IMG/VR virus record: IMGVR_UViG_3300030376_005986
Span: 1,929-65,928 of that record
Reading direction: 5' to 3' (one strand)
Source of the DNA: a virus
Lineage: Duplodnaviria > Caudoviricetes
DNA: 64,000 bases
A model generated the notes under the pieces. It made no database searches, was not told the DNA's origin, and saw only the letters and a program-made list of their open reading frames with translations. Below, one piece after another: positions 19,377 to 50,961 of this stretch. The stretch's first letter is position 1. Each line of letters begins with the position of its first letter. Both the position numbers and the translations under genes were made by a program.

Positions 19377-19791
19377 TTGCAACAGACAATCAGGATGTGT
19401 AGCTGAATCTATAGTTACAGCTGAACTATTAAAACGAGATTGGGTAGTATCTACCCCCGAAGGGGACTATGCACCCTACGATAAGATAGCTACCAAGAAT
19501 AAGTTCATAAAAAAAATTCAAGTTAAGTCCTCAGACTCTCAAAGAGGGTCCACTTATAGGTGGACTATGAGATCTGGAGCTAGGAAAACTACTGTTCCAA
19601 ACATAGAAGACATAGATATATACGTCTTCGTAGCTCTAAGACACCAGTTATTCCTAATAATTCCCTACGATTTGATCATAGGTAAGAAGACTTTCTCTTT
19701 TCCTTTAAGTAATTCCTGTAAATCTCCGTGGGTAATGCATGTAAATGCATGGGGACTACTAGAAAATAAAGGATATACAGACGTTATTTAA
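19363..19791 (+). CDS. PD-(D/E)XK endonuclease (PDDEXK_5-like); probable start ATG 19363
   Basis: GCVAESIV...PYDKIA...KIQVKS...DIDIYV. Confidence 0.75.
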   Translation: MRPSNCNRQSGCVAESIVTAELLKRDWVVSTPEGDYAPYDKIATKNKFIKKIQVKSSDSQRGSTYRWTMRSGARKTTVPNIEDIDIYVFVALRHQLFLIIPYDLIIGKKTFSFPLSNSCKSPWVMHVNAWGLLENKGYTDVI

Positions 19792-19912
19792 GGATAGATC
19801 CTATTTTCTTAGCCTGTTCTATGGCTCTCTTTAATACTCTCACCGCTTTATAGTCTTTAGTTTCGTCCAGCTCGTTAATAGCTGCCTGCAGCGATAGAAT
19901 TAAATCTGACAT
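19784..19912 (-). CDS. Small helical ORF (42 aa; not in track)
   Basis: MSDLILSLQAAINELDETKDYKAVRVLKRAIEQAKKIGSILK; convergent with the endonuclease. Confidence 0.35.
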   Translation of the reverse strand: MSDLILSLQAAINELDETKDYKAVRVLKRAIEQAKKIGSILK

Positions 19913-20035: not shown

Positions 20036-20162
20036 ATCGGTCTTTCTCGACCTGAATCATTCTAGGAAATAACACCAACAAAATGAAGATTTTCCCTTTT
20101 CTGTTAATACTGAAAACGGAATAAGCAAAAGGGCGATTTTATTCAGTGGACGGGATCAATCA

Positions 20163-20747
20163 TTGATTCCAAAAGCTTCAAATATTCACTTAAACCTAAA
20201 TATTGATATGGCAAATAAACCAACAATAAAAACGGAATCAGTCAACTCGGCTGATAAGACTAATAGACAACCAGAGACGCAACCTGACACGGTTTTTACC
20301 GATCAGGCAAAGTCTAAGACTAGCGAATCTGAAAAGGTCGAAAACGTCACAACTACGGACGCAAGAAAGCCCTTTATTAAGGCTATTCAGAAAGTTGAAA
20401 AAGACGGGAAAGAAATTGAGATTGAAAACGAGATTTTAAACCCAGAATTCATCAGCTTGTGTCAAATTGATTATCCAAAAGCATTCAGCAAAAATGGCCT
20501 TAAAACGGTCATTGAGGCTATCACGGGATCACGGTCGGAAGATCTACCCCATGAGGAATTCAAGGTCATTAAAGCGGCATTCAAGGCCCTTAAGGAGTTC
20601 GGCAAATCTGAATCTCTTAGGGAGGTTACTGATGCGGATGTGGTTGAAATCAAGAAGAAAACCCGCATATATAACGACATTGACAGGACTATGGAAGAAA
20701 AGACTGTTATTCACTGTTCGACCAAGGGCGAGTATTCTAGCAAATAA
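20163..20747 (+). CDS. Hypothetical early protein (probable start ATG about 20208)
   Basis: ORF track; followed by its own terminator. Confidence 0.6.
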   Translation: MIPKASNIHLNLNIDMANKPTIKTESVNSADKTNRQPETQPDTVFTDQAKSKTSESEKVENVTTTDARKPFIKAIQKVEKDGKEIEIENEILNPEFISLCQIDYPKAFSKNGLKTVIEAITGSRSEDLPHEEFKVIKAAFKALKEFGKSESLREVTDADVVEIKKKTRIYNDIDRTMEEKTVIHCSTKGEYSSK

Positions 20748-20752
20748 ATCAC

Positions 20753-20790
20753 AAAGAACCGCCCCCAAGCTGGGGGTGTGTTCTTTTTTT
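20753..20790 (+). terminator. Intrinsic (possibly bidirectional) terminator
   Basis: AAAGAACC-GCCCCCA-AGC-TGGGGGT-GTGTTC-T-run. Confidence 0.75.
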
Positions 20791-20850
20791 GTTTATACCA
20801 GTACTGTTCAAAATCATCAGGTTAATACTAATTTATTAATCTGATAATTT

Positions 20851-21496
20851 CGAACCGACAGGCTAAGTAATGCTTAGTTATGTGACAGTCAAAGACTGTT
20901 ACGTTGTGTTCGACTGGTAGGATTTATGCCTACTATGTTCTTTGGTGTGCCAGCGTGACGCTGCATATGTGGTGTGTCCCAATGGGATGCATAGTGCTAA
21001 GGCCTTACATGTGAATTGGCGGGAGCTGTGTGATCTGATCAGGTCGATCTGTGTCTGCATTTGTGCGATAGGCAGTGTAGTTAACTGCAGAAGCCATAGA
21101 CTTTAAGTCGGTATAGGTTCTGGAGAACAAGTGAGAACAGACAAGGTGGTCGTTGCAAGGGTATGCGAGACTGATTAGGTGCTACCAACTTCGGGGTAGC
21201 TAGTAGTGGGCATGGAGTGCTTCATGTCTGCGAAGGAAGGGTTAGATACTGGGCATTAAGAAGAGTCCTTTGGATACTTACCTCAACTAACCTCATCCTG
21301 TGTCTGGCCTGAGTGTATGGGTATAACATACATCGAGGGTTTTGTTTCGTCCTATTCTTATTTATCAGGGATATGGAGGCGATTAGATGATGCATATAGT
21401 GAGCCGCTTATGTAGTTCACTGACCATCACACTATGAGCCTCCGTGTCCTTTTTTTGTGTCTATTGCGGGTACATGATAGGCACACAAAAGGGACA
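20851..21496 (+). ncRNA. Candidate large structured non-coding RNA (~650 nt), family not recognised
   Basis: No ORF of 60 aa or more; more than 12 hairpins and nested long-range helices (see findings). Strand inferred from context and G-U pairing. Confidence 0.55.
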
Positions 21497-21530
21497 TGAT
21501 TACATGCACCTTAAATGAGAAAGTAAATAT

Positions 21531-21746
21531 ATGGGAAGAAGAAGAGATCATAAGCCTGACCCTAGGATAGTTGAGAGGATAGATCCTCACACTAGACAGC
21601 GTGTTAAGAGCGTTAGGATAAGTGCTAGTAGTTGGTTTAACGCAGCTACTAGGGATAAGAAGCTAGACCCTTCATGGGATCAGCAGACAGTGCCTAAGCA
21701 GAGAGGTAAGAAACCTGACAGGACAAGGAGCAACGACAAGTTATGA
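21531..21746 (+). CDS. Hypothetical early protein (71 aa)
   Basis: First of a coupled series of small ORFs. Confidence 0.55.
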   Translation: MGRRRDHKPDPRIVERIDPHTRQRVKSVRISASSWFNAATRDKKLDPSWDQQTVPKQRGKKPDRTRSNDKL

Positions 21747-25808: not shown

Positions 25809-26546
25809 ATGTTTATTTTTAATATACCCAATGACATGAACAGACATTATCATATAATAGGAGCAGGCGGAGTAGGTAGTTGGTTACTACCTGCTCTGGT
25901 TAAACTAGCAGATCAACATGATTCCATTACTATACATGATGGAGATGATCTAGAGTTGAAGAACATGGACAGGCAACTGTTCAGAAAAGAAGACATAGGT
26001 TCTAACAAAGCGGAAGCACTTTCATCTAGGTATAAGAATGAAGCTCAGTGCATGATGTATACAGTACCTAGGTATTTCTCAGGAGAACTGGAAGGAGTCA
26101 TTGGTTCACCAGAATACACATGGCTTCTTGGTTGTGCCGATAATCATCCAGCTAGGAAGCTAATACTGGAGGCATGTGATACTCAGGGATACAAATCAAT
26201 CATAGGTGGTAACGGTTACACTGATGCTGATGCATACTTCTATGAGTCTAGTATGCGTGGGACTCCATGTGATCCACGGGTTTATTATCCTGATATACTA
26301 ACTGACACGACAGGTTCACCTATACATGCAGCGGGATGTACTGGTGAAGCACAAGATGAAACACCTCAACTTGTGCTGGCTAATATGTGGGCAGCAGCTC
26401 ACATGTTACATCTACTGTGGTATCACACTGAGATAGCTAAAGATATACCAGAAGATATGGAGGAACATATGCCTATGCTTTCTAGGAACTCAGCTTATAT
26501 GTTTGAGACAGTAAAGAAAGGTATGCTTAAAGGAACATTAAGTTAA
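25809..26546 (+). CDS. ThiF/E1-like Ubl-activating enzyme
   Basis: IIGAGGVGSW, DGDDLELKNMDRQ, GSNKAEAL, GCADNHPAR, then putative catalytic Cys in AAGCTG...PQLVLAN..AA. Confidence 0.9.
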   Translation: MFIFNIPNDMNRHYHIIGAGGVGSWLLPALVKLADQHDSITIHDGDDLELKNMDRQLFRKEDIGSNKAEALSSRYKNEAQCMMYTVPRYFSGELEGVIGSPEYTWLLGCADNHPARKLILEACDTQGYKSIIGGNGYTDADAYFYESSMRGTPCDPRVYYPDILTDTTGSPIHAAGCTGEAQDETPQLVLANMWAAAHMLHLLWYHTEIAKDIPEDMEEHMPMLSRNSAYMFETVKKGMLKGTLS

Positions 26547-26559
26547 GAGAGGAAATCGA

Positions 26560-27762
26560 ATGAGCCATGAATGTAGAATTTGCTTGGAAGCATTCATCCC
26601 AAATCAACCGTGGCAGGTATTATGCGGAAACAAAAACTGTTCGATTGAGAACAGGAAAAGAAACCGAAAGAAAAAATATCTAGAAGATCCAAAGGTAAAA
26701 GAATACAACAGGATATATGATAGTAAAAGGAGAGCTAAGGTTGAATCAAAAAAACCAAAAGGAAATAACTGTAAGCATTGTGGTAGCTGGTATAAATACC
26801 CATTCACCAAAAAAAATAAAGAAGGGGATTTAAATATAAACAGGGCAGTAAAATACTGCAGCTTAAAATGTAGAGAGAAATCTAAAAGTGTAAGACTACA
26901 AGGTGGTGGTCTTGTTTTTTTTAAAGGAGAAATAAAGCATTGGAAAAAAGTGAAAAAACATGAATGCAAAATCTGCAATAATACATTTGATGCAGAAAAA
27001 CTAGTGATAAGAGATGGAAAAAAATTCAAACAATATTTAAAGAATGCTTTATATTGTTCTGATAAGTGTAGGAAAGAAGCAACGAACGTCCTCTCTAGAG
27101 AGCGTTGGTGGCAAGGGGAAAGAGAAAAATACCTTAAGAAAAAAAGAAAAGGCAATTGTGTAGTTTGTGGTTTAATATACCACACCTTCAGTGGAAGACA
27201 GAAAACATGCCTTAAAAAAGAATGCCAAAGAGAAAGCCACCAAAGAGGCGTTAGGGTAAACAAAGGGCAAGAAGAAATACCCGTTGATAAGATACATAAA
27301 ATTAAATGTGAATACGACAAGTGCGGGAAAGTTTTTACTTGTAGAAAATCCACAAATTCAACAGGCAATCTCCCTAAGCACTGCTCCCGTGCTTGCGTTA
27401 AAAATAAACATGCTGATAATGTTAGGCATAGTTTAGATCATAAAATTAAAAGCAGGTTAAGATCTAGGGTAAGGTCTGCTCTAATGAACAACGCAAGGGG
27501 TAAAATAAACAAAGCTAAAAAAACAGAAGAACTTTTAGGTTGTAAAATATCTGAGTTGAAGAGTTTGTTTTCTAAAAAGTTTACACAAGGAATGTCGTGG
27601 AAGAAATTTCTAGCAGGCGAGATACACATAGACCACATCAAGCCGTGTATTTCATTCGATCTAACGAAGGAATCAGAGCAGAGGAAGTGCTTCAACTATA
27701 AGAACCTTCAGCCCCTATGGGCTAAGGATAATCTTAGCAAGGGTGCTAAGATAGCAGCATAA
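26560..27762 (+). mobile_element. HNH homing endonuclease with multiple CxxC Zn-finger repeats
   Basis: C-terminal HIDHIKPC..FDL....QRKCFNYKNLQPLWAKDNLSKG; repeated CxxC...YCS.KC units. Confidence 0.8.
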
Positions 27763-37547: not shown

Positions 37548-37922
37548 ATGTCTCAGAAATTACCAACAGAAGTAGATATACTTAACCTAACCTACAAGAT
37601 TAACTGGATGGAACCTCCTGAAGAATCAGGTGCTGAACAGTTAGGACTGTGTGACTTCCAAGAACAAATCATATCTGTAACCAAGTCATTACCTAGGCAG
37701 TCAAGAGCCGAGACTCTATTACATGAAATTATTCATGCGATTAATCACGGCATGGGTGCTCCTAATAAAATAGACGAAGAAAAGTTTACTGGTAAGATGT
37801 CTATAGGTATGGCTACAGCTATCAAGCAAAGCCCTGAGGTTTGGAAGTGGATCATGAAAGAGATCTGCTACAAAACACCAAAGCCTAGAAAGAAAACAGT
37901 TAGTAAGTCCTCCGTAAACTAG
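37548..37922 (+). CDS. HExxH zinc metallopeptidase-like protein
   Basis: LGLCDFQEQIISV....RAETLLHEIIHAI. Confidence 0.7.
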   Translation: MSQKLPTEVDILNLTYKINWMEPPEESGAEQLGLCDFQEQIISVTKSLPRQSRAETLLHEIIHAINHGMGAPNKIDEEKFTGKMSIGMATAIKQSPEVWKWIMKEICYKTPKPRKKTVSKSSVN

Positions 37923-40900
37923 GGAACGGAACAGTTTGTTCTCTAGGGACTCTCCTTGAAAATCCCTTACTAGGTATAACAGATCTGTTGCCTCTAAACC
38001 TAGGAGAACGACCACCTATTCTTTTTAATCCATTATAAAAGTTAACTTCATTTATAAGATACTCGTTTCTTTGAGACTCATTTAAAGAGTTAAGAATTTT
38101 AGATCTTATAGAGCTAGTCACTGGTCCTTGAAGAGCTCCCCTGTAAGCATCTTTCCCTGCATAAATATTTCTAATCTTTTGAACAGGATTCTCATCACCT
38201 GCATTTTGAGAAGCAGCTATCGCTTGTTTAAAATGATGGTTAAAAGAATTCCAGTCCTCAAGCATTGCATAGTTAACCATTAGCGAAACTTGCACAGAGG
38301 TTGGTGAAGATGTTTGACCACCTCCAGTGTAGTTAGATCTCCTGACTCGATCTCTTGGGGCATACCTTCTTATAAGCCTCATGTTATCTCTTACCTTAAC
38401 GGTTCCAGCAATTGGACCTATTCTGTTAACTAAGTATCTAGAATTAGGATACATTTGCTTTGTGAACATAACTAAATTTCTTTCTAAAGCTCCACCACTA
38501 ATACCTTCAAAGGTTACTTTAGATAGGAAGTTCATAGTGTTAGATATTTTATTTTGTATAAAGAAATCATACCCTTGACCAACAGGAATTTCATCGTTAA
38601 GCCACATGTTAAAAGGAGCATTAATCATAGGGAATCCACTAAGACCATAAAGGAGTGTTCTTTGTATGCCCTTACCTATTGTTTGTTCTTCCCAAGGTTG
38701 CCTCCCTGCTTTTACTTCCCCGAACAAGAACTTATATATCATCCTTAGAAGTTCTTCCTGAGTTGCAAAACTAACAGCAGCTACTGTCATCATCCCCATT
38801 AAGACTACAGCTAATTGAATCTTTAAAGAATCTATCCCTCCAGTTTGTTTCCCTCTAGGTGATTTAGATAAATACTGAATACTGTTAAAAGCTGCTGAAA
38901 CAGACCAACCTATAATAGCTAATAAGAAATTTGAGTTCGCTTGAGTTTTAGTTTGGATGGGTCTGTTAGCTACAGTTGCAAGGTTCTCAGAAGTAACAAG
39001 TCCTATCCCTAATTGTGCTCTTTGTTCTGTGGTTAGAAATGTAGCATCTTTATTTGTGTCTAGTTCTTTAAGAAACCTTAACGCTTCAGCGTGGTAGTCT
39101 ATAGCTGAATGACTAAACATTTCTTCAAGTTGAGCCATAGATGTTTCATTTGCTTTGAATATAAACTGATCACCAAACGCATCAGTAGGTGTTAAGACAT
39201 CTGACTTACCTTTGCTTTTAGGGATAGAAGGATCTGGATCGTTATATCTTTCCCATATTTTATTTCCATCTCTTCTATGTAAATCTTTAAGTCTTATCTC
39301 TAAGACAGACATTGCAGTGTTAGCAAATCTAAATGAAATATTATTACCTACTGTATCAAATATTCTAGGTAATGCCATACCCGGAATCTCTGCTAAGAAA
39401 AGTGCTGATCCATTATACCAAGTAGACAGGCCGCTTCTTAAATCACTTCTAGATCTCAGCTCATCTTCTCTTTCTATTCTTCCTCTAGTCTCAACACTCT
39501 CAAGATAGTTATCAATCTTTCCTTGAACATTAATTCTAGATGTGTAACCAGCTTCATTTAATCTTCTTAATGCAGAGTTTATTTTAAATTGACCTAAGCT
39601 AATGTCTTCCACAAAAGGTTTGTTAAGGAACTCATCTAGAAATGTTGACAATACTTTCGATCCTTTACGTGTTTTTACACCCTCTAATGCTCCCTTTCCT
39701 ACACCCTTGGTAAATCCTACTCCAAAAGTAAGTCCACCTTTTACAATCTCCTTGAGCATATCAACAGCAAATCCTTTATGTAATGTAGCGTTACCTCCAA
39801 ACATTGAAACCATTCTCATGTTTGATCTTGTAGCGGTCCCCCAAACATTAACTAAACCTGTTGTAAGTAATTGAATAGCAACCATAACAACATCACCAAA
39901 CACTCTTCGGTAGGTCCTGTTAATTTGCATCTCAAACTTTTTATCTTTCTCAAGGAACCCTTCAAGCTCAACTATCTTAGATTGTATAGCATTTAAATGG
40001 TTCTCTGCTCTTTCGTAATCTAAGAAGACCTTTCCATTTTGCACGCTTTGCTTCTTGTCTTCTAAGAATTCATTTATTAAACCATTGTTAGCTGCGTCTT
40101 GCTTTTCTTTAACAGCAATATCTAATTCACCAGCTACTGCTTTTAATGATGCTATGAAACTGTCTAAGTATTGAACAGCAGACTCATTGATCAAGTTGTG
40201 AACAGTAGCGGTCTCGAAAGATCCATACTCATAATAAAAGTAATTTGCTACAGCCTCTTGTCTTGAGGTTGTGAAAGGAGAATCACTTCTTGTTTTCTTA
40301 TATTCTACTCCAGATGAAGCATCAATAGGCTCATGCATGAATTTATTAAACTTATAAGATTGAGATGTCATCTCTCTTATTAATTCATACAAGGATTCTT
40401 TTGTGTTTAAATTAACAGGCTCTTCCTCTTCACCTAACTTAGTTACATCTACAGATCTATTTGAAAAGAACATAGCAAGATCTGTTAAGTCTTTTATATC
40501 TCCATTTAAAACAGCATCTCTAGCTTCATCGTAAACCCCTTCAGTAAAGTAAGGATCAGTTCCATTTGTTATTCTTCCTTCCCTGTTATCTAAGAAAGGT
40601 AATACATATCGTTGAAAGTTACCCCCTATTAATTCAATTATTGAATCACCTCTTTTATTTTTATCCGCATACAAGTCTAGCTTAAGCTCTCTTTTTTCTT
40701 TATCAGTTTTATCTTCAAGTGAATCAATGTCATCAAACTCTTTTTTATTGTCGTCTAATATGTTTGATATTTTTGAGGATAAACCTAAAGCAAATGTGGA
40801 GAATCTTTTAGGAAGAGTGTACTCAGTATCTTTTAATGCTCTTCGTCCAAACTTTCTTGGGGATTTTTTATCTCTCGCTTTTAACTCTTCATTAGTTCTT

Positions 40901-43900
40901 CTCCCAAGAATAACATCTCCCCTTCCTTTCTTAACATCTAAAGCAAATAAATCACCAAAGGCTTTTACTTGAAGTTTAAGAGCTGCAATATCCTCTTTAG
41001 TTACAGTTTTTATTTTTGTTGAATCGGAAACAGTAGCTACGTCACCTACTGAAGGAAGCCTTCCTGTTACATTTGCTAAAGCAAATAACCTTTGACCTAT
41101 AGAATTCCTCCAGTCAGCAACCCCTATAGGTCCTTTCTGAAATCCGTGAGATCTTGCCGCATCAAACAGTGCAGCTTTTATATCCTCTTCATATTTCTTG
41201 CCCCAATCTACACCACGCTCAAGAGTTAAAGCCCAGTTATCTAAATGAGTTGTCGCAAGTTTAGATGTAAAAGTTCCTACTGAAGATAATAAATTTTGCA
41301 AAGGCCTGAATCCAAAAGCATCTGAATCCATTACATTCCTTAACATCTTCCCATCCCTGATTGTTGGGCCTAGTAATGTTGCGACAGCGTGATCTCTTAA
41401 CTCTATCCAAGCAGGAGTAAATGGATCATCTTGATTTTCAGGATCATTTATCCATTGATTAATGCTATCTATGTATTGAGACAGTTTTAATAACTCCTGT
41501 TCTCTTCCTTCAGTATCACTTAAATCCCATTTAATGCTAACACTTTTCTCTTGTTCTGGATGAGGGAATAATCCTTCGCCTTGAGTTAGTTCCATCTGCT
41601 CCACAGGCTTAGCTTTTATTACCTCTGAAGATATCTTCCTAGCTTTACTGAATTGCTCATGCTCAACTATTCTTCCAGCAACTTCAGCAGCAATTTTTAT
41701 GTCATTGTTTGCTCTTATCTCATTTAAAACTTTCCTTCTCAATGAAAGAAATAATCTGTTAGCAACTGCTAGTTCACCTGTTGCTGTATTGTAATCTTTT
41801 AGTAGCTTGTCTATTGCTCTTTTACGCCCATCAACTTTTACAAGAACACGCTTACCTCCTCTTGTTGCGAACTCTTTGTCTGTTGCGAATAGATTAGAAA
41901 TCTCTTGCTCGTATTCACTGTAAGCTTCAAATGAATCACGCAAAGTTTCTTCAGATACTTTATTTAAAAGAACATCATTCTTATGTTTCTGAAGTATGTG
42001 GTCAGCTGCAAACTTTACTATAGGATCAACCTCAGAGAATACCTTTTCCATTGTTTTTGTATTCCAAGATCCCTTCTTTAAATGTTTTCTATAAAGTCCT
42101 TTCTCTACTATGTAAGCAAAAACAAGATCTCTCCAAGTAGCCTCCTTGCCTTCCCTATTTATACCTTTATGCAAAATGATTTGAGCATCAGCATTGTTCC
42201 ATACAGTGTTATAAAAATTCTCTATGGTTTTAAATATCTCAGGGCCAACAAGTTTATCATCTAGTTGACTTGATAATCTATTTAAATCAAATCCATATTT
42301 AGTTAGCAATTCTAAAGCTTTAGATTCTGCTCCATCAGCTTTCACTTTTTCAAGTAGGTTCTTATAGAACATCTTAAAAGAAGAAACAGAATTGCGAGCA
42401 GCTTGCTTAGTAGAAAACTTATCCTTAACTTCATCCATTAAAGATATTAATTTTTCTTGCTCAGATTCAGAGTCTATAGTTTTAGCCTGCTCCCTTAATC
42501 TCTGATAAGAAATAACAAACTCTTCTGTGTTCTTGAAGAACTCTTTGCTAACCTGCTCCCATATTGAAACAGGAAGTTCGTCTTTTATTTTATGCAACTC
42601 AAGATAACCTTCAGCATTAAATATTAAACCGTTAGTAGTTTCTTGGTTCTCTTCAAGTATCTTTCTAATAGCCTCAGAGTTTTTAACACTTGCAAGGCTT
42701 GCTGCTTTTTTAGAAATTTCAAAAACATCATCAGTCTCTGTGACAAACTCTCCGTCTTTAAATTTAGTTTTGCCAAGCATGTTCTTGAACTCTTCTTCGC
42801 CTTCCATATCTTTCAAAACTTTTTGATACAAGTCGTATATCAAATTATGAAAAGACCCAGCTTCAAGTGACACCCTTCTAGCAGCTTCAACATTACCTTC
42901 TTCTTTTAAGGCTTGATTCCTTACGTTAAACTTAATTGCTTTTTGTAAGTCTTTCGGGGTTTGTATTGAAGCGTTAAGATTAGGACCAGCAGTAAACATT
43001 TGCCTTTCAACAGTGAACTCACCTGATTTGAACTTAGACAAAACTTCTTTAGCAAATTTTCTTTCAGGTGAAACTAAACCCAGCTTGTTAAACACCCATT
43101 CTAAAAGATCAGATAGATAAGACTTAACTCTAGATGTAAACCCAACTGGGTTTGTTTCTGGTAATAGTTTATTAATATCAGCCTGACCTTCTTTAGTCAT
43201 AATGTAAGCAAAGAACTCGTTATCATTTATTAAATGATACATATCACTAGCCCTTTCCCCGTATTTATCTATATAAGACTGAAAACTATCTACGCCTAGT
43301 TGATTAATAGAATCTATTCTAGATAGAATGTCGTTAGCTATTTCAAGCCTGTATCTTAAGCTACCATCTGGAGTACTAGAGATTACTTTCTTTAATGCTT
43401 TCCTTCTCATCTCAGTTACATTCTCTTGCATGTCCTGAGGAATAAACGCATGAAGGTAGTGAGAAAATTCATGAACAAAACTGTCAGCTGTCTTACCTTC
43501 TAAAGGTATAGAAATAGTTTTCATTGCCTCTACAAATGAACCACCTAATTCAAAACCTCTATCAGTTCTAAGTGATGTGCTTATAGAGAGAGTTAATTCT
43601 TTTAAATATTTTTCAGGAATATTACTAAGTAAGATAATAGCCCTGTCCACAAAACCAGCCCCAAGTTTATCTCTGTTATCTTCTAGTAACTGGACTATAC
43701 CATCTGCTCCTATAGCAGATCCGACTTCTTCAGATCGTTCTGAATCACTAGCCTTAACACCTGTTACAAGTGCGTCACTATCATAAGGAGCACCTTTTTG
43801 TATAGGTAGGTCAGGAGAAGGTCTATCAGATTTAACTGTTGTATAATTTTTAGGAAGAGTGTTGCTGAGTGTGACAGATAAATACTTACTAGTAAGTCTA

Positions 43901-46900
43901 TCTAGACTAGCCTCGCCACTGCTTGCATCTCTTAACTTGCTTAATAAAATTTCAGGATTAGAGTCAACCTCTTTAAGTGTTCTTCTTAAACTATTTAATT
44001 GAGTCTGAGCTGATCTTTCTTTTTTATTCAATTCACTTTCAAGTGATTGATCTTCACGATACTGTCTCTTTATTTCTTCTGTTACCTTCCTGCCAGTTCG
44101 AGATCCTTGTTCAATTATTCTTTGTTGAATAGTTTTTACTGAACCAAATTCTATTCTGTTCTTTTTAGCCTCTCTATATTCTTCTTCAGCCTTACCTATT
44201 TGAAGTTCAAGATTTCTTGTTTCATCTTGAATGAACTTACGCTCTTCTAAATCCTCTATAACTCTAGGTTCAAAAGGAATATCAAGAGAACCAGCAAGGT
44301 AATCTAATACCTGAGCTCTTTTATTTGAATCTAAACCAGTAAGCTTTTTAACTATAGCAGATCTTTCTTTCATTCCACTTTCAGCAGCAAACAGCTCTAT
44401 GAATTCATCAAAAATTGAACCTATTATAATTTGTTTTATATATTTCCTGCTACCTTGTTTTAAATCTTGTTCAGTTAACTGGTCTCTGTTTTTAGGCATG
44501 AACTCTCTAGCGTATTCAGTAATCTTATCTTGAATCTCTTTTCTTATTTCTAATTTTTCTTGAGTGAATTCTGAATCAGTCATTCCTTCAGGAGTAATCG
44601 GACCTAAATAGAAACCAGAGTTAGAGAAAGCTGGATGCTCAAGTATTTTAAACGGATCTCTAAGCTCTAATGTTTTATATAACTTGTAATATAAAGTGGC
44701 TGGGGTTTCAGTTCTTCCAGACTTCTTAAGATCAAGTTTAAAGAACTCACCATCTCTACCTTTATTTTTTGCAGTCCCTGTTTCTCTGAATTGATCCTCA
44801 CTAAATCTATTAGATAAAGATATAAGCATTCCAAACATTACTCCGGGGTCCATAGCACCAGCACCACCCGTAAAGAATGAATCAACTATCTGCTTAAAGA
44901 CTATACCTTTCTTTCTTATCTTTCTAGTAGTGATGCCGAACTTGCCAGTAGATTCTGCACTGATCTTAGCTCTCTTATCTAAGATGGCTAATAATTTCCT
45001 ACCTGCCTTAACTCCACCTGATAAGTAATCCCGATTGTCTTCCTCTTTGGCTGTCAGTAAAGTTCTCTTAGGTCTTCCAGTTTTTTTAAGCCATTTAGGG
45101 TCAGTCTTCCTCTTAAGTTTTTTCTCTTTAAGATCCTCTTTAAGTTCAAGCAGCTTAGGTTCTAAATCATTTTCTAATATATCTTCTATTCTCCTGTAAT
45201 CATTTCTATCTAGAGTGATTTGTGAATCAGATTCGCTAGAAATTATAAACTTAAAATCTCTTGCATATGTATATTCTATATTCGTCAGTGGACTTCTCTC
45301 ATAAAAATTCTTTTTAGAATCTCCGTAAGATCTCCTAAGCATAGACCTTTCTTTTTCTTTCTGAGTTGGCTTTGTAAAAACAATTAAGTCCTCTTCTAAA
45401 TCACCAAGTGTTTCTACTCTAGATCTTCTAAGATTCTCCTTTTGATCTAAATGATACTGGTATCTATTGCCATCAAAATATTCTAACTGAGCAGCATCAA
45501 ATCCAAACTGCTCACCAAGCTTCTTATCCATAGAAGTTATAACAGTAGAGATAGCTAATAATTCTTTAGTAAGTTCCCTGAAACTATCCAAAGTTCCTTT
45601 AATATCTGTAAGCTCAGCTAAGGCTGTATATACATCAGATCCTAACCCGTATCTCAAAGTAAAACTATCTATATAGTTTTTTATCCCGTCTTCATCTAAA
45701 TTTAAAACATCAGGGTATGAATCAATATCTCCAGTAGCACTGTAAGATTTTGGGTTTGCTAGTATTTTATCTACAGTAAAGTCACTAGCAGTTGGTGGAT
45801 TTATTTGGTCTTCGGAAGCCCAACCCATTGCTTCCAAAATTAAATAACCTTCATCCTTTTGTTTTAATTTTTCAACAACCTCATTAGTTCTTTTTGCTAT
45901 GAGACTTAATAATATATCTTCTCTTTGAAATGATTTTATATATGACTCATGGATTATATCTCTTTCTTCTTTGATCTTATTAAATCTGTCTACAAAGATT
46001 TTAATCCTGTCTTCTTGTGATGTATATACACTGGATGATTCCATCCTTTGTATATTTTCTTTCTTCAAAAGATCATAAAGTAAGTATTGAGTTTTATCTC
46101 TTGCTTGTAACTCAGTACCATCAAATAATAAAAAGTCAGTGCCTCTAAGTTCTAAGAACTTATTCCAACCAATAAGCATTTCTTTTTGAAACTGAATTAT
46201 TTTTTCTCTAAACTTATTATCTGATAAATCATTACTTTGAATTGTATCTATTAGATTTTTTCTTGCTTCTCTGAATGCTTTGTTAGCCCTTCCTATTTCT
46301 GTATCCTCATAAAATTCACCTGCGATAAATTTCCTTACCTCTTCTTCTTCCTCGCTTCTTTCAAGAACATCAGCAGGAGATACTTCACCTACAGCATCAG
46401 CGTCTGGATCTTTCGCTGCAACAATATCATCCTTAGTAGAGATGAGTTCAGTAAGATTAGCGTCCTTAGCTTCATCTGTTGGACGAAACCTTCTGTACTC
46501 ATCACTCTTATACTTAACTGATTTTAGTTCAATGTCATCGTTATAAAGACTAGATATTTCATTATAGAGGTTAGATATATCAGAACCTTCAACTTTCCCT
46601 TCAGGGCTTATGTAATTTCTTATTCTACTTACAACGTCTTCTGCATAAGCAATGTCTACCCTTAACTTTGAAGGAGTATATTCCAGATCTTCTTGAGAAG
46701 AGTAGTCTAAGTTAGTGGCTTGAATTTCAATTTCATCTGTTGGGGTATCTTTTTCAGTTAGTGTTCGTTCTTCTAAGACAGTTATTCTTTTTTTAATTGA
46801 CTCAAGAAGCTCTTTAGCATAACGGCGATCCTCAGGTTTAAGGCTCTGCCTTTTTTGTCCTGCTTTAGAAAAGAACCTGTCTTTCTGTGGTATTGTTAAA

Positions 46901-49900
46901 TCAGTAACAGGTTTAAAGTTATCAGGGTTATCAGGTTTGTTTTGTATTTCAAAAGTTGATTTGGTTTCTTGTTTACCTTTACTTGTTGTTACCCTTCTTT
47001 TTGTTTCAATAACTACCCCATACTTTGGAAGGTCTATTGCTTTAGGAACTATTCCGTTTATAGCGTTATCAAGTTTCCTTGCGTAAGATTGCAACCTCCT
47101 TAACTCTGTTCTCTCTGATGCAAGTGGGCCTAATTGTTTTTCTGTTAAAGAAGCAAAATGATCTAAGTGTATATTAACAGCATCTTCAAACAACTTAACC
47201 AGATCAGAAATAGTTTTTTCAGCTATGTACGATCTATTTAGATTAGCTATTCTTTTGTATGATTCAGACTTATCTTTTTTAAGATTTGCATATCTAGGAT
47301 CTTTCACTAGATCTATAGCGTTAGATATAAATCCTCCTAAGTTTTCTTTTTGAGAAAATAAAATTTCACCTGAAGTACTATTAAAGAAATCCTTAAGCCT
47401 TTTGGATTTTGCTGCTTGCTTAACAAGAGTAACAAATTCTTCACGATCAAGACCTACCCAACTAATATCTTCAAGGAACCTAGGCCCTCCTTTTTTGCTT
47501 TGATATTCCCAATTCTGTCTTTGAATAACCCCGCTATCATCAACTATTAAAGACTTTGGAATATGTGCAAACACAACAACTTTTTCTCTGCCTTTTATTT
47601 TACTTCTTTGAATTTGAATCTGATCCATTCCGTCCTCGTTCAAGGTATAGGAAACCTCACTAGATCCTTTAGCTTTAATGCTTACCACTAAACCTCTAGC
47701 ACTAGAGAAATCAAGAACGGCATCAGACTTAACTCTGTTTTTATTAAAAAGAGAAACTGGTTTGTTCCCATCCATAAGTTGAACAGAGTCAGTATCCAAC
47801 TTGAATACATTTACGTTACCAAGTGTTACGAAGTCACTGCCATAATCCATAGGGAAGTCTACATACTGGGATAACTTATCTAACATTCTAGAAATAATAG
47901 CCTGCTCTTCATTGTAGTCCCCTTCTTCTAGATTTTTATCAACCAGATTTTCTATATCTGACCCACCTTCAGCGATTACAGCATCAAACAATTTACCTAC
48001 AAAGTCTTCTGGATTGTCTTTGAATGATGGAAGATGTTCTCCAAAATCATACAGATCAAGATCGTCTACTTCCTTTGCAAATTTCTTTACAACTGCACCA
48101 CGTAAATCTTTTTTATTGTAAGTTTTTTTCTTGTTAAGCTTTGCGTTTACAATGGCTTGTTTTATATCAACGATAATTAATCTAATGAAATCATTTAAAT
48201 CTTGAAGTGCAGCAACTGGATAACCAGTTATGTCTACTATCCTTTTTCTTCTTTCTGCTATCTTATTAAGAATATTCTGAGCCTCTTGTTCTCTCTTGCC
48301 TGTTAAGATAATACCGCTAACTCCCCTTGTTTTCTTGGTAGTTTTTTTCTTAGCTTTAGGTTTCGCTTTAACTCCTTCTTTAGTCTTAACTATTTTAACT
48401 CCTTCAGATTTAGTCTCAGTTGTAGTTGACGCATCTTTAGTTGATCTAGTTTTTGATCTTGGCCCTGTTAAGATTTCATCTAGGTCTGCTCTCTGATCAT
48501 CTCCAGCAGCACTCTCAGCTTCTTTTTGAAGGGTTTCAAAATCTTTAAGTATACCCTCTTGTTCTTTAGTAAGCTTACCCCCTTTAGCTACAAGAGAAAT
48601 ACCTTCGCTAGGCTGGCTAGTTTTATAATACTCATCAATAGTTACTTGAAACCCTTCTTGGTTTTCAAATTTAACAATAGCAGTGAATTCAATTGGAGCT
48701 TCAGGTCTTGCTTTAGTAACACGTTTAATATCCCTTATAATACCAACTTGCCTAGACTCACCCCTGCTAGGAACTTCAACTATTAAAGATTTCTCAAGTA
48801 CTTTCTTTATTGCATTTGCTTTTGCAGATTCACTCTTACCTGTTTTAGAATCAGTATCTTTCTTTCCGTAACCTCCATACGTTCTTTTTATAGGCGTTTT
48901 AGATCTGTCCCTTCTTAAGCGTGCCTCTTGTTTGTCTCTTGCTTTTTGAAGATCAGCTGGGGTTATTTTCTTTTTAGTGCGAATGACAGCACCAGCCTCT
49001 TTAGCCATCTTTTCTTCAAGGGCTTTTTGTTCTTTATCGCTAGCTATCTTGCCTTGAAGTATACCTAATTTTGCATTTCTTTCTAAAGAAGTTTCAGTGT
49101 ATTTAGGATCGTTAACAGTATCTATATTTCTTAGACGCTGCTCGCTTTCAACTTCATCTTGTGTTCTGAATGTTCTTGTTCTTCTACCTCTAGTTGCAAT
49201 TAAAGGAACTGGATCAGGTTCGTTTGCACTGTCAGCCCAAATAGATTCTAAAACTTTACCGTTTTTATTAACCTTAGTTATTAAAGCTTCAACCTCTATA
49301 GGGTTTCCATCAAAACCTATTATATTATGAAGATAAGTCTGACCTACTTCGTACTGAGATTCTGGATTGTTATAAGGAGCTTGGCTTTCTGTTAATACGG
49401 GAACAGGTTCAGCAACTCTAGGATCTCTCCCAAAAGGTGCTGATTGACTTGGATCAACTCCAGCTTGTGTTGCAGCATTGTTTAAATTCTCTTTAGACTT
49501 TGTTTCTAAATCAGCTTGAGCTTGAGCTTCGCTAGCTTCTTTATCTGCATTTGAATCACCAATTCTGTCTTTATATTTTAAAAGAACTGATTGAGCTTTT
49601 GATTCTAATTCTGTTGCTTGACTTTCAGAGAGTGATGTTAGACTTGGAATCCTCTCCTTTATATTTTCAATAGCACTATATTCTTCTTGAGTTGGTATAT
49701 ACTCTAGGTCATCTAATTTTTTCTCTATTCTTTCTATTGTTAGACCCATTGTTGAAGCAAGTATAACACTTCCTCCTTCTTCTTTTTTAGCTAGTTCAGC
49801 TACTCTTTTATAAGTTGTATCTACAAGATCTTTGTCTGCTTTTTTATTAACAGCTGTATAATAATTACCCGCACCACCAACAGCACCAATAGGTGCAGCA

Positions 49901-50961
49901 CCAAAAGCCCCCATAGCAGAGGCATCAAGAATACGCCAAGCGTTCTCACCATTAACAATATCATAAGTACTATCAGCTATTCTATTTGCTAGTAGCTGTA
50001 AAGATTCTTGACCTGCTTCTGTTGATCCTTCTACTAAAGCAGATTTGCCAGCAGCTTTCAAAGCACTGCCCATCATTTGCCTCCAGTATTTTTCTTTTAC
50101 TGAATCAGGAAGAGCATCAAAGTATGCTTCAAAAGTTTTTCCTATACCAAATCTTTCTAGCAATCCAGAAGCAACACCAACAGGAATAGCAATAGCAGGA
50201 GACTCTACTCCCGTTTCTTCTCTAACTCCTCTGTATGTATGACCTATGTTTTTTATGACAGACGGGCCAGTCGCAGCTCTTCCCAAAGCTAAAGCTCCAG
50301 TTTTAGCTATTTCTTTTTTAGTTAATCCTTTGAGAGCTTCCTTTCCAACAACCCTTCCTATTGCTCCCACACCACCTGTTGCTATAGCAGTTGGAATCAT
50401 CGAACCTAAATAACCAAACATATAACCAGTAGCTTGTAATGCATAAGCCCCTATATCTTTAGCACTGTCAAAATCCCTAACAGTACGCATAGGGTATTTA
50501 TAAGCTTCACCTTCTAAAAAATCTCCAGCTGCTTTAAGTTTGTCCTTACCTACATCTCCAGCAATATCAGAAAGAGTTTCTGCAAAACCTACATCTCCAG
50601 CAAATCCTCCTAAGAATCCAGCTTGAAGACCTGTGGTAAATGGATTAGGAGGAGCTTCTCCTTGTTTTTCTTCATACTCCTTAACTCTCTGGTCAAAAGG
50701 AATGTATTCTCCTCCAGAAGAATGCCTTGACGCTTCATCTATAGCTCCTACTACTCTTCCAGCAACAGGAGCATACCAAGGAATATCTATCCCTTGGTCT
50801 TGTGGTTGTTGATTTAAATTAGATAAGCTATCAGGAGCAGCAGGCAACTCTCTTGGTTCAAAACCAAAACCCCCAGAGCTTAATTCATTAGGTCCGGGGG
50901 GTAATATTTTACTTTTCTTACCAGAATGTAATCCAACATCTAGCGAATAATCTTTAGGCAT
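37900..50961 (-). CDS. Giant internal virion / ejection protein (4353 aa), polyvalent-type, with a zincin-like HExxH domain
   Basis: Uninterrupted ORF; G/A-rich hydrophobic N-terminal region with VEGSTEAGQE; FVHEFSHYLH at 43441-43480; follows two ejection-like genes. Confidence 0.7.
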   Translation of the reverse strand: MPKDYSLDVGLHSGKKSKILPPGPNELSSGGFGFEPRELPAAPDSLSNLNQQPQDQGIDIPWYAPVAGRVVGAIDEASRHSSGGEYIPFDQRVKEYEEKQGEAPPNPFTTGLQAGFLGGFAGDVGFAETLSDIAGDVGKDKLKAAGDFLEGEAYKYPMRTVRDFDSAKDIGAYALQATGYMFGYLGSMIPTAIATGGVGAIGRVVGKEALKGLTKKEIAKTGALALGRAATGPSVIKNIGHTYRGVREETGVESPAIAIPVGVASGLLERFGIGKTFEAYFDALPDSVKEKYWRQMMGSALKAAGKSALVEGSTEAGQESLQLLANRIADSTYDIVNGENAWRILDASAMGAFGAAPIGAVGGAGNYYTAVNKKADKDLVDTTYKRVAELAKKEEGGSVILASTMGLTIERIEKKLDDLEYIPTQEEYSAIENIKERIPSLTSLSESQATELESKAQSVLLKYKDRIGDSNADKEASEAQAQADLETKSKENLNNAATQAGVDPSQSAPFGRDPRVAEPVPVLTESQAPYNNPESQYEVGQTYLHNIIGFDGNPIEVEALITKVNKNGKVLESIWADSANEPDPVPLIATRGRRTRTFRTQDEVESEQRLRNIDTVNDPKYTETSLERNAKLGILQGKIASDKEQKALEEKMAKEAGAVIRTKKKITPADLQKARDKQEARLRRDRSKTPIKRTYGGYGKKDTDSKTGKSESAKANAIKKVLEKSLIVEVPSRGESRQVGIIRDIKRVTKARPEAPIEFTAIVKFENQEGFQVTIDEYYKTSQPSEGISLVAKGGKLTKEQEGILKDFETLQKEAESAAGDDQRADLDEILTGPRSKTRSTKDASTTTETKSEGVKIVKTKEGVKAKPKAKKKTTKKTRGVSGIILTGKREQEAQNILNKIAERRKRIVDITGYPVAALQDLNDFIRLIIVDIKQAIVNAKLNKKKTYNKKDLRGAVVKKFAKEVDDLDLYDFGEHLPSFKDNPEDFVGKLFDAVIAEGGSDIENLVDKNLEEGDYNEEQAIISRMLDKLSQYVDFPMDYGSDFVTLGNVNVFKLDTDSVQLMDGNKPVSLFNKNRVKSDAVLDFSSARGLVVSIKAKGSSEVSYTLNEDGMDQIQIQRSKIKGREKVVVFAHIPKSLIVDDSGVIQRQNWEYQSKKGGPRFLEDISWVGLDREEFVTLVKQAAKSKRLKDFFNSTSGEILFSQKENLGGFISNAIDLVKDPRYANLKKDKSESYKRIANLNRSYIAEKTISDLVKLFEDAVNIHLDHFASLTEKQLGPLASERTELRRLQSYARKLDNAINGIVPKAIDLPKYGVVIETKRRVTTSKGKQETKSTFEIQNKPDNPDNFKPVTDLTIPQKDRFFSKAGQKRQSLKPEDRRYAKELLESIKKRITVLEERTLTEKDTPTDEIEIQATNLDYSSQEDLEYTPSKLRVDIAYAEDVVSRIRNYISPEGKVEGSDISNLYNEISSLYNDDIELKSVKYKSDEYRRFRPTDEAKDANLTELISTKDDIVAAKDPDADAVGEVSPADVLERSEEEEEVRKFIAGEFYEDTEIGRANKAFREARKNLIDTIQSNDLSDNKFREKIIQFQKEMLIGWNKFLELRGTDFLLFDGTELQARDKTQYLLYDLLKKENIQRMESSSVYTSQEDRIKIFVDRFNKIKEERDIIHESYIKSFQREDILLSLIAKRTNEVVEKLKQKDEGYLILEAMGWASEDQINPPTASDFTVDKILANPKSYSATGDIDSYPDVLNLDEDGIKNYIDSFTLRYGLGSDVYTALAELTDIKGTLDSFRELTKELLAISTVITSMDKKLGEQFGFDAAQLEYFDGNRYQYHLDQKENLRRSRVETLGDLEEDLIVFTKPTQKEKERSMLRRSYGDSKKNFYERSPLTNIEYTYARDFKFIISSESDSQITLDRNDYRRIEDILENDLEPKLLELKEDLKEKKLKRKTDPKWLKKTGRPKRTLLTAKEEDNRDYLSGGVKAGRKLLAILDKRAKISAESTGKFGITTRKIRKKGIVFKQIVDSFFTGGAGAMDPGVMFGMLISLSNRFSEDQFRETGTAKNKGRDGEFFKLDLKKSGRTETPATLYYKLYKTLELRDPFKILEHPAFSNSGFYLGPITPEGMTDSEFTQEKLEIRKEIQDKITEYAREFMPKNRDQLTEQDLKQGSRKYIKQIIIGSIFDEFIELFAAESGMKERSAIVKKLTGLDSNKRAQVLDYLAGSLDIPFEPRVIEDLEERKFIQDETRNLELQIGKAEEEYREAKKNRIEFGSVKTIQQRIIEQGSRTGRKVTEEIKRQYREDQSLESELNKKERSAQTQLNSLRRTLKEVDSNPEILLSKLRDASSGEASLDRLTSKYLSVTLSNTLPKNYTTVKSDRPSPDLPIQKGAPYDSDALVTGVKASDSERSEEVGSAIGADGIVQLLEDNRDKLGAGFVDRAIILLSNIPEKYLKELTLSISTSLRTDRGFELGGSFVEAMKTISIPLEGKTADSFVHEFSHYLHAFIPQDMQENVTEMRRKALKKVISSTPDGSLRYRLEIANDILSRIDSINQLGVDSFQSYIDKYGERASDMYHLINDNEFFAYIMTKEGQADINKLLPETNPVGFTSRVKSYLSDLLEWVFNKLGLVSPERKFAKEVLSKFKSGEFTVERQMFTAGPNLNASIQTPKDLQKAIKFNVRNQALKEEGNVEAARRVSLEAGSFHNLIYDLYQKVLKDMEGEEEFKNMLGKTKFKDGEFVTETDDVFEISKKAASLASVKNSEAIRKILEENQETTNGLIFNAEGYLELHKIKDELPVSIWEQVSKEFFKNTEEFVISYQRLREQAKTIDSESEQEKLISLMDEVKDKFSTKQAARNSVSSFKMFYKNLLEKVKADGAESKALELLTKYGFDLNRLSSQLDDKLVGPEIFKTIENFYNTVWNNADAQIILHKGINREGKEATWRDLVFAYIVEKGLYRKHLKKGSWNTKTMEKVFSEVDPIVKFAADHILQKHKNDVLLNKVSEETLRDSFEAYSEYEQEISNLFATDKEFATRGGKRVLVKVDGRKRAIDKLLKDYNTATGELAVANRLFLSLRRKVLNEIRANNDIKIAAEVAGRIVEHEQFSKARKISSEVIKAKPVEQMELTQGEGLFPHPEQEKSVSIKWDLSDTEGREQELLKLSQYIDSINQWINDPENQDDPFTPAWIELRDHAVATLLGPTIRDGKMLRNVMDSDAFGFRPLQNLLSSVGTFTSKLATTHLDNWALTLERGVDWGKKYEEDIKAALFDAARSHGFQKGPIGVADWRNSIGQRLFALANVTGRLPSVGDVATVSDSTKIKTVTKEDIAALKLQVKAFGDLFALDVKKGRGDVILGRRTNEELKARDKKSPRKFGRRALKDTEYTLPKRFSTFALGLSSKISNILDDNKKEFDDIDSLEDKTDKEKRELKLDLYADKNKRGDSIIELIGGNFQRYVLPFLDNREGRITNGTDPYFTEGVYDEARDAVLNGDIKDLTDLAMFFSNRSVDVTKLGEEEEPVNLNTKESLYELIREMTSQSYKFNKFMHEPIDASSGVEYKKTRSDSPFTTSRQEAVANYFYYEYGSFETATVHNLINESAVQYLDSFIASLKAVAGELDIAVKEKQDAANNGLINEFLEDKKQSVQNGKVFLDYERAENHLNAIQSKIVELEGFLEKDKKFEMQINRTYRRVFGDVVMVAIQLLTTGLVNVWGTATRSNMRMVSMFGGNATLHKGFAVDMLKEIVKGGLTFGVGFTKGVGKGALEGVKTRKGSKVLSTFLDEFLNKPFVEDISLGQFKINSALRRLNEAGYTSRINVQGKIDNYLESVETRGRIEREDELRSRSDLRSGLSTWYNGSALFLAEIPGMALPRIFDTVGNNISFRFANTAMSVLEIRLKDLHRRDGNKIWERYNDPDPSIPKSKGKSDVLTPTDAFGDQFIFKANETSMAQLEEMFSHSAIDYHAEALRFLKELDTNKDATFLTTEQRAQLGIGLVTSENLATVANRPIQTKTQANSNFLLAIIGWSVSAAFNSIQYLSKSPRGKQTGGIDSLKIQLAVVLMGMMTVAAVSFATQEELLRMIYKFLFGEVKAGRQPWEEQTIGKGIQRTLLYGLSGFPMINAPFNMWLNDEIPVGQGYDFFIQNKISNTMNFLSKVTFEGISGGALERNLVMFTKQMYPNSRYLVNRIGPIAGTVKVRDNMRLIRRYAPRDRVRRSNYTGGGQTSSPTSVQVSLMVNYAMLEDWNSFNHHFKQAIAASQNAGDENPVQKIRNIYAGKDAYRGALQGPVTSSIRSKILNSLNESQRNEYLINEVNFYNGLKRIGGRSPRFRGNRSVIPSKGFSRRVPREQTVPFPSLRRTY

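Follow-up and report, generated by a model that had tools for sequence, protein, structure and literature searches.

Evidence for a new family of large ornate RNA at a conserved locus of uncultured marine phages

Introduction

Fewer than 12 classes of large non-coding RNAs with complex folds are known in bacteria and phages, and each of them opened new biology, be it ribozymes, RNP machines or RNA nanocages. GOLLD (RF01998) and ROOL (RF03087) are large (~600-800 nt), ornate non-coding RNAs found in phages and prophages; they have many helices and conserved junctions, and their function is unknown. They often occur beside tRNAs. Recent work showed that each of them assembles into multimers made of RNA only (bioRxiv 10.1101/2024.12.08.627333). 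OLE RNA has ~600 nt, an intricate fold and highly conserved single-stranded blocks. It functions in an RNP together with small proteins whose genes lie next to its own (PMC9723947). Structured RNAs of ~70-220 nt lie directly 5' of a small Arg-rich gene, in an early operon with terminators, in the lambda N leader (nutL, RNase III hairpin, N gene) and in the put RNAs of HK022; in the lambda N leader, the duplex with the RNase III site stands just before the gene. Structured RNAs in IMG/VR have been surveyed before, and the motifs reported were all of 29-151 nt (PMC10690425).

Here we analyse an element that is comparable to GOLLD, ROOL and OLE in size and intricacy, and to the lambda N and HK022 leaders in its position 5' of a small Arg-rich gene. 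It lies in a 64-kb stretch of DNA (hereafter the window, to which coordinates refer unless a contig is named) from a 65.9-kb IMG/VR record with an estimated completeness of 92%. An initial annotation, made from sequence alone, had proposed that positions 20851-21496 hold a large structured non-coding RNA on the + strand.

Results

Genomic context and non-coding status

The phage genes of the window include those for a terminase, virion proteins, a DnaB-type helicase, a Sak4-like protein, an exonuclease and an integrase. GenBank phages gave no nucleotide match to the element or the window, with a best helicase identity of only ~34%, and the source is an uncultured marine phage without a close cultured relative. 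All genes between 17517 and 37922 lie on the + strand. Further along the window, an ORF of 4,353 aa (within 37900-50961, - strand) has no Pfam or PHROG match whatsoever, and the ORFs of 801 aa and 1,161 aa that come after it are likewise nearly unannotatable.

The element falls in the gap between the stop of a 194-aa ORF (20747) and a start codon at 21531, in which the longest ORF has at most 57 codons. No ORF was found in 20792-21530 with any stop-codon reading, and each of the six frames of 20790-21531 holds several TAA, TAG and TGA codons. Because stops of every kind occur in every frame on both strands, no stop-codon reassignment can open the region, and a recoded ORF is ruled out. A conserved small ORF is ruled out as well: tblastn between lineages detected similarity in all six frames, crossing stop codons, so that the conservation does not derive from a hidden peptide, and the inserts that separate anchor motifs have lengths not divisible by three. 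The GC content of the element is 0.46-0.48, compared with 0.36-0.42 in the flanks, and its GC skew is about +0.27 to +0.28.

We found neither tRNA nor tmRNA near the element, and no second copy of it in the phage. There was no family match to an IscB/TnpB nuclease or a reverse transcriptase (RT) beside it, the neighbours being DnaB, small unknown ORFs and an Arg-rich 71-aa protein. Without an adjacent RT or nuclease, and with variable-patch changes that are not adenine-specific, HEARO/omega RNA, retron msr-msd and DGR template were rejected as identities; DGR-like hypervariation at 20964-21018 was ruled out on the same absence of an RT and of A-specific changes. We also considered pairing between the element and the upstream gene at 19430-19820, and discarded it since the count of short complementarities (6, compared with a mean of 7.1 and sd of 2.3 for other 1.5-kb segments) is at chance level.

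Homologues, synteny and conservation

A near-identical phage, IMG/VR 3300027906_000123 (contigs L002, L005 and L007), carries a copy of the element that is 95% identical. Scanning metagenomes with aligned sequences of the helicase encoded nearby yielded two diverged copies (L010:4729-5584 and L013:5769-6865) and, in a fifth, partial lineage, the 5' end of the element only (L008:7236-7311). A search with invariant blocks added a fourth lineage, IMG/VR 3300030107_005768 (L039, L057, L059 and L077). Beyond these two other records, IMG/VR returned nothing to searches with four different invariant blocks followed by blastn/nhmmer filtering, and a search with the neighbouring protein led to the same two records only; GTDB genomes contained nothing by RNA pattern or by helicase, and GenBank phages no homologue of the element. 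Within the searches made, the family as sampled is therefore confined to one lineage of uncultured marine phages.

In five sequences the element measures 695 (the window copy), 696, 856, 942 and 1,097 nt. Any two lineages are 60-71% identical in nucleotide sequence and 301 columns are invariant, and the element is better conserved than the flanking proteins, which are 28-54% identical; the RNA is under stronger selection than its neighbours. Its surroundings are syntenic throughout, comprising a 119-aa gene, DnaB, a 159-aa gene, variable small genes, a gene with a conserved C-terminus (28-38% across lineages over ~94 residues), the terminator t1, the element, the Arg-rich protein and a second small protein, in that order. 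The distance from the DnaB gene to the element downstream is always 1.3-2 kb. Within the element, the invariant blocks CAGCGUGACGCUG, GCGGGAGCUGU, GCAAGGGUAUGCGA, UAGUAGUGG, CUGCGAAGG and GUGUCCUUUUUUUGUGUCUA alternate with arms that take insertions of 35-200 nt. A conserved core with a plastic periphery is typical for RNAs that have a complex tertiary fold.

The comparison with the closest relative offers some insight into how the locus changes. The window and the contig behind L002 are ~98-99% identical across many kb, and about 30 of the 32 differences between the two within the RNA fall in a single arm of ~65 nt (20953-21018, corresponding to L002:8941-9007), of which the L002 version resembles that of L010 (GGTTCCAAGTGAACTAGC). 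The L002-type arm might be a recombination patch or a fast-evolving peripheral hairpin. The upstream gene (20134-20745) has no nucleotide similarity to its L002 counterpart (L002:8140-8732), and only the C-terminal ~94 residues can be compared, at 33% amino acid identity; nucleotide homology restarts at 20746, 6 nt before t1, the body of the gene having been replaced in L002. Since homology restarts just before t1, it is likely that terminator and RNA act as one module in mosaic exchange.

The gene of the Arg-rich protein (MGRRRDHK...; 21531-21746, + strand) lies directly 3' of the RNA in all four lineages. The protein is very basic, starts with MGRRRDHK and carries QRG[KR]K near its C-terminus; its homologues (L010:5607-5816, L057:2528-2761 and L013:6893-7129) have 69-78 aa and are 43-54% identical. 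No relative was detected in Pfam, PHROG or the Atlas, and the AlphaFold model, a beta-hairpin with two short helices at a pLDDT of 66, was too poor for a fold search. On its conserved adjacency in related phages alone, the protein may be a candidate RNA partner.

Covariation, folding energy and strand

We obtained a consensus fold of 195 pairs in 27 helices by applying RNAalifold to a plain, structure-blind MAFFT alignment (A5). Paired cells amount to 94.3%, as compared with 36-42% when partners are slid by 1-3 columns, and 60 pairs show a compensatory double change, compared with 7-13 in the slid controls. In 500 column shuffles, the paired fraction, the double-change counts and the covariation score never came up to the values observed. 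Compensation was seen in H1, H3, H4, H9-H12, H14, H16, H18-H23, H25 and H26, which are nearly all of the helices that vary, and 104 column pairs were shared by at least three of the single-sequence MFE folds of the four lineages. These counts rest on four lineages only, which limits their statistical depth. A conserved, multi-domain secondary structure of the + strand, with invariant loops and junction strands and with peripheral arms that tolerate insertions, is nevertheless shown by these data, and we consider a chance finding an unlikely explanation.

Positions 20851-21496 fold with -229.6 kcal/mol (z -5.3) on the + strand and with -155.9 kcal/mol (z -1.9) on the - strand. When the range 20806-21495 was folded, the + strand had a z of -6.5, the most extreme of 11 sense-strand windows, the ten control windows of 690 nt from the same phage ranging from +2.4 to -4.2. 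The - strand of 20806-21495 beats its shuffles as well (z -5.8), because H1 and H27 are near-palindromic. The second most extreme value among the sense-strand windows (z -4.2, 12 shuffles) belonged to the control at 26000-26689 (+), which may reflect local mRNA structure or noise.

Several observations bear on the strand. G-U pairs occupy 138 of the 898 paired cells, several of them invariant, and the complementary strand would pair only 79.8% of the cells. The consensus energy is -181 kcal/mol with 195 pairs in the forward direction, compared with -117 kcal/mol and 151 pairs for the reverse complement. When the element is compared with its 95% identical copy in L002, the substitutions seen in the variable arm include U-A to C-G and C-G to U-G. 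Finally, the hairpin H18 (21181-21201, +) is capped by C(UUCG)G in the window and has a UGCG loop in L013. The UNCG tetraloop is a hallmark of RNA and not of ssDNA, and the retention of this motif through the change from UUCG to UGCG likely favours RNA over ssDNA. From the G-U cells, the consensus energy, the UNCG loop and the arm changes we therefore infer an RNA read off the + strand, in the same direction as the neighbouring genes. That the element is a conserved structured + strand RNA is very likely, in the absence of expression data.

With respect to its main claims, the initial annotation held. These were a large structured, ORF-free RNA on the + strand, now supported by covariation in four lineages and by strand asymmetry; G-U-rich pairing indicative of that strand; and a location after a terminator, with more GC than the flanks. 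Of the checks that had been set beforehand, the Rfam scan was negative, covariation was present and folding went beyond that of shuffled sequences.

Architecture of the element

The locus opens with the intrinsic terminator t1 (20752-20791, hairpin called at 20760-20791, +), a GC-rich hairpin with a U7 tract that is kept in all lineages and closes the upstream replication-gene block; its tail GTGTTCTTTTTTTGT is found again at 21444. About 15 nt after the U-tract begins H1 (20806-20855, +), a long hairpin of ~20 pairs, 8 of which show compensatory changes. The outer 3' strand of H1, CGAAC, can alternatively pair in P2, the helix (CGAACCGAC with GUUGUGUUCG) that closes a three-way junction (20850-20913, +) around H3 (20861-20879; 5 covarying pairs) and a hairpin of variable sequence (20883-20903). 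P2 was missed by the MAFFT alignment and a short realignment restores it to the consensus; when the 5' sub-domain was folded lineage by lineage, the same three-way junction was obtained every time, with -24 to -28 kcal/mol for 68-77 nt. The next hairpin, H4 (20914-20936, +), has 4 covarying pairs, was predicted in four of four independent folds and bears a conserved 7-nt loop, which reads AUUYAUG in three of the four lineages and AUACAUG in L057. H5 (20951-20963, +), with the sequence CAGCG-UGA-CGCUG, does not vary and so offers no covariation evidence. It is followed by the variable arm H6-H8 (20964-21032, +), which is rewritten with respect to the near-identical L002 and is interrupted by an insertion of 130 nt in L013.

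The central domain (H9-H17, 21033-21180, +) consists of nested helices round a junction, with covariation in H9, H10, H11, H12, H14 and H16. In H11, CAGACA at 21138-43 pairs with UGUCUG at 21052-57 and covaries twice from CG to UA; H17 is a hairpin with an invariant loop, GCA-AGGGUA-UGC (21155-66). Downstream of H18, the hairpin H19 (21206-21231, +) stands between the invariant single-stranded blocks UAGUAGUGG and CUGCGAAGG, and the H20-H22 arm (21237-21294, +) is extended in other lineages by the hairpin H21 and 40-50 nt. H23 (21308-21338, +) has 6 covarying pairs and a loop GGUAUAA which follows a stem G and so reads GGGUAU. This word occurs at two hairpin loops, those of H17 (21155-21166) and H23 (21314-21332); it is invariant in H17 and has the variants GGGUAG and GGGCAG in H23, so the two copies are not kept identical. 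We noted two candidate pseudoknots, one between AAYUR (21014-18) and the H14 loop UAGUU (21078-82) and one between GGUAU of the H17 loop and AUACU at ~21247. Both can pair in all sequences and vary by transitions only, and we regard them as no more than leads.

Of the individual helices that the initial annotation had listed, most were borne out. The three-way junction closed by CGAAC/GTTCG was recovered in all four lineages, and GTAGG/CCTAC, GCTACC/GGTAGC and GGAGGC/GCCTCC were each confirmed with covariation; CAGCG/CGCTG was recovered too, without any variation. GGTTAG/CTAACC held in part (80% of cells paired), and CATATGT/ACATGTG is specific to the window and sits in the fast-changing arm. 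The final hairpin at 21445-21496 held. The proposed long-range pairing of CAGACA (21138) with TGTCTG (21301) failed, given the covarying partner of CAGACA in H11, and so did the 5' boundary at 20851, as the covarying hairpin H1 places the start of the element ~45 nt further upstream.

The 3' end

The element ends in the 3' junction H24-H27 (21349-21495, +), which includes H24 (GUCCU with GGGAC) and H26, the latter located inside H25. In H25, 21368-80 and 21438-50 form a stem of 13 bp whose 3' strand leads directly into a U7 tract (21450-56), as in a terminator. The stem encloses 57-130 nt and was not called by the terminator scan, and its U-tract doubles as the 5' strand of H27, in which the U-tract and GUGUCUA pair with UAGGCACACAAAA (conserved strand UAGRCACACRAAA). 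H27 encloses 14 nt in the window and up to ~170 nt in L057, and its changes from A-U to G-U are compatible with the + strand only. Furthermore, a 20-nt direct repeat with 85% identity (D2, GTGTYCTTTTTTTGTNTNTA) is present at 20778-20797 and 21444-21463 and recurs in other lineages. It could reflect a pair of terminators built alike, a common recognition site or the scar of an insertion. Given that the tail formed by H25 and U7 repeats that of t1, a terminated 3' end near 21456 is plausible, though only as a possibility, transcript ends not having been mapped.

The pairing at this end is ambiguous. In the consensus fold, H24, H25 and H27 form a tight three-way junction; in single-sequence folds, one 20-bp hairpin (21445-21496) is preferred and H25 is shortened. 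Four near-invariant segments, GUCCU at 21349 (1), GGGAU at 21368 (2), GUCCU at 21446 (3) and GGGAC at 21491 (4), can pair as 1:2, 2:3, 3:4 and 1:4; as the segments show no variation, covariation cannot tell these alternatives apart. Only 34 nt lie between the end of the fold and the start codon at 21531, and there is no clean terminator after H27. We found no sigma-70-like promoter between t1 and H1, candidates picked by eye not being conserved, and an independent transcription unit is thus not shown.

Search against known RNA families

The whole 64-kb window has no match in Rfam 15 at gathering scores. At E<=10, the range 20600-21700 matched no bacterial or phage family, the hits within the element being chance-level eukaryotic microRNA, lncRNA and CRISPR-repeat hairpins far under their gathering scores, and at E<=1 the homologues L010, L013 and L057 had no match. 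The models of GOLLD and ROOL were accordingly unmatched in each of these searches (gathering for the window, E<=10 for 20600-21700 and E<=1 for the three homologues). Group I and group II introns were rejected for want of an Rfam model match and by position, the element lying between a terminator and a start codon and not within a gene. The Rfam covariance models thus upheld the earlier statement that the element matches neither GOLLD, ROOL nor an intron. Large ornate non-coding RNAs can be described as being >400 nt and non-coding, with many covarying helices and conserved unpaired nucleotides, and the element meets this description with its 695-1,097 nt, 27 helices, 60 covarying pairs and 301 invariant columns. 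Fragments of it could possibly sit among the 29-151 nt motifs of the IMG/VR survey (PMC10690425), where the whole RNA is not described.

Discussion

We propose that 20806-21497 (+) encodes, as a gene or module, a large and intricately folded non-coding RNA whose family is absent from Rfam. This RNA would act as a folded molecule, either a trans-acting ornate RNA or an RNP scaffold. Its source would be the rightward (+) transcription from which the downstream accessory genes are expressed as well. H1 and H27, the hairpins of ~20 bp at its two edges, may mark or protect its ends; duplexes of about this length are RNase III substrates in the transcripts of phages T7 and lambda. H25 with U7 may terminate part of the transcripts near 21456, and the Arg-rich mini-protein would be one possible RNP partner. 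Function, expression and ends are inferred here, and we consider this explanation as a whole, a stable trans-acting RNA or RNP with these ends and this source, to be as likely wrong as right.

The rival that must be taken most seriously is a giant cis-acting leader or attenuator, which remains possible. RNA polymerase would either stop at H25 and U7 (21438-21456) or read into the Arg-rich gene and the accessory or anti-defence genes beyond, and the switch might use pairing 1:2 as anti-terminator, 2:3 as terminator and 3:4 as the hairpin formed after read-through, pairings which are untested. In its favour, H25 abuts U7 in the geometry of an intrinsic terminator with a tail that repeats the tail of t1, and at least two conformers are plausible, as single-sequence folds take 3:4 and the consensus takes 2:3 with 1:4. 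All four segments are almost invariant, as would be expected if each keeps several partners. The end of the structure 34 nt before the next gene, without a clean terminator after H27, is equally compatible with a leader and with a stand-alone RNA, and no promoter of its own was found. Against it, invariant segments provide no covariation, so that none of the alternative pairings is demonstrated; a length of 0.7-1.1 kb far exceeds that of known bacterial and phage attenuators and riboswitches; a terminator stem enclosing 57-130 nt is atypical; and no ligand or factor is evident. A bolder version, in which the entire 0.7-1.1 kb fold is a sensor that drives the GUCCU/GGGAY/GUCCU/GGGAC switch at U7 and thereby gates the downstream accessory operon, including the Arg-rich protein, is unlikely, its function being inferred.

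Two further readings appear very unlikely to us. The initial annotation had offered an ssDNA signal as an alternative, and a DNA or ssDNA signal beside the helicase gene, such as a replication origin, a single-strand initiation site or a primosome assembly site, would agree with the constant position relative to DnaB, with the - strand z of -5.8 for 20806-21495 and with G-T wobbles, which are possible in ssDNA too. However, neither iterons nor an AT-rich unwinding block was found, known ssDNA signals, at under ~300 nt, fall far short of 27 helices and conserved junction strands spread over 0.7-1.1 kb, and the conserved UNCG tetraloop is an RNA motif in a fold with strong pairing asymmetry between strands; the motif and the size and complexity of the fold weaken this alternative. 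A degenerate or unrecognised self-splicing intron, ribozyme or mobile RNA element could instead have inserted at the terminator, with the repeat at 20778 and 21444 as its scar. D2 does bracket the element, in other lineages as well, and large size, a conserved core and a variable periphery resemble introns. Yet no group I, group II or ribozyme model matched (E<=10 for 20600-21700, E<=1 for the homologues), no gene is interrupted by the element, only one genomic position is seen with neither an empty site nor a second copy, and no RT, maturase or homing endonuclease was found adjacent.

We therefore return to the large folded RNA as our preferred reading and compare it with the described systems. 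The lambda N and HK022 put leaders share with the element a structured RNA directly 5' of a small Arg-rich gene, in an early operon with terminators, and H27 precedes the Arg-rich gene much as the RNase III duplex precedes N. They are far shorter than the 700-1,100 nt of the element, in which no boxA/boxB motif was identified, and the Arg-rich protein has no similarity to N. Were the switch reading true, the element would be by far the largest phage cis-regulatory RNA known, and in any case its 3' end represents a concrete, testable arrangement of terminator and alternative hairpins. OLE is similar in size, in the intricacy of its fold and in its highly conserved single-stranded blocks, and the adjacency of its partner genes parallels that of the conserved Arg-rich mini-protein gene; it differs in being a chromosomal RNA of Gram-positive extremophiles, whereas the element has no Rfam match and its neighbour protein no detectable family.

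With GOLLD and ROOL the element has in common its phage setting, large size, many helices and conserved junctions. It differs from them in having no cmscan match in sequence or structure, in the lack of tRNA genes nearby and in being found only in one lineage of uncultured marine phages. By analogy with ROOL and GOLLD, an equally novel alternative, for which there are no multimerisation data, is that the RNA might self-assemble into an RNA-only multimer. The location of the element at the entrance of an accessory/anti-defence gene block suggests that it probably matters for infection. With expression and function inferred, we conclude that the element very likely represents a new family of large ornate phage RNA, kin to GOLLD and ROOL in kind and not in homology. 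It would be a further class of large RNA, unrelated in sequence to those described, with a covariation signal that is unusually clear for just four lineages and that makes it ready for probing or cryo-EM.
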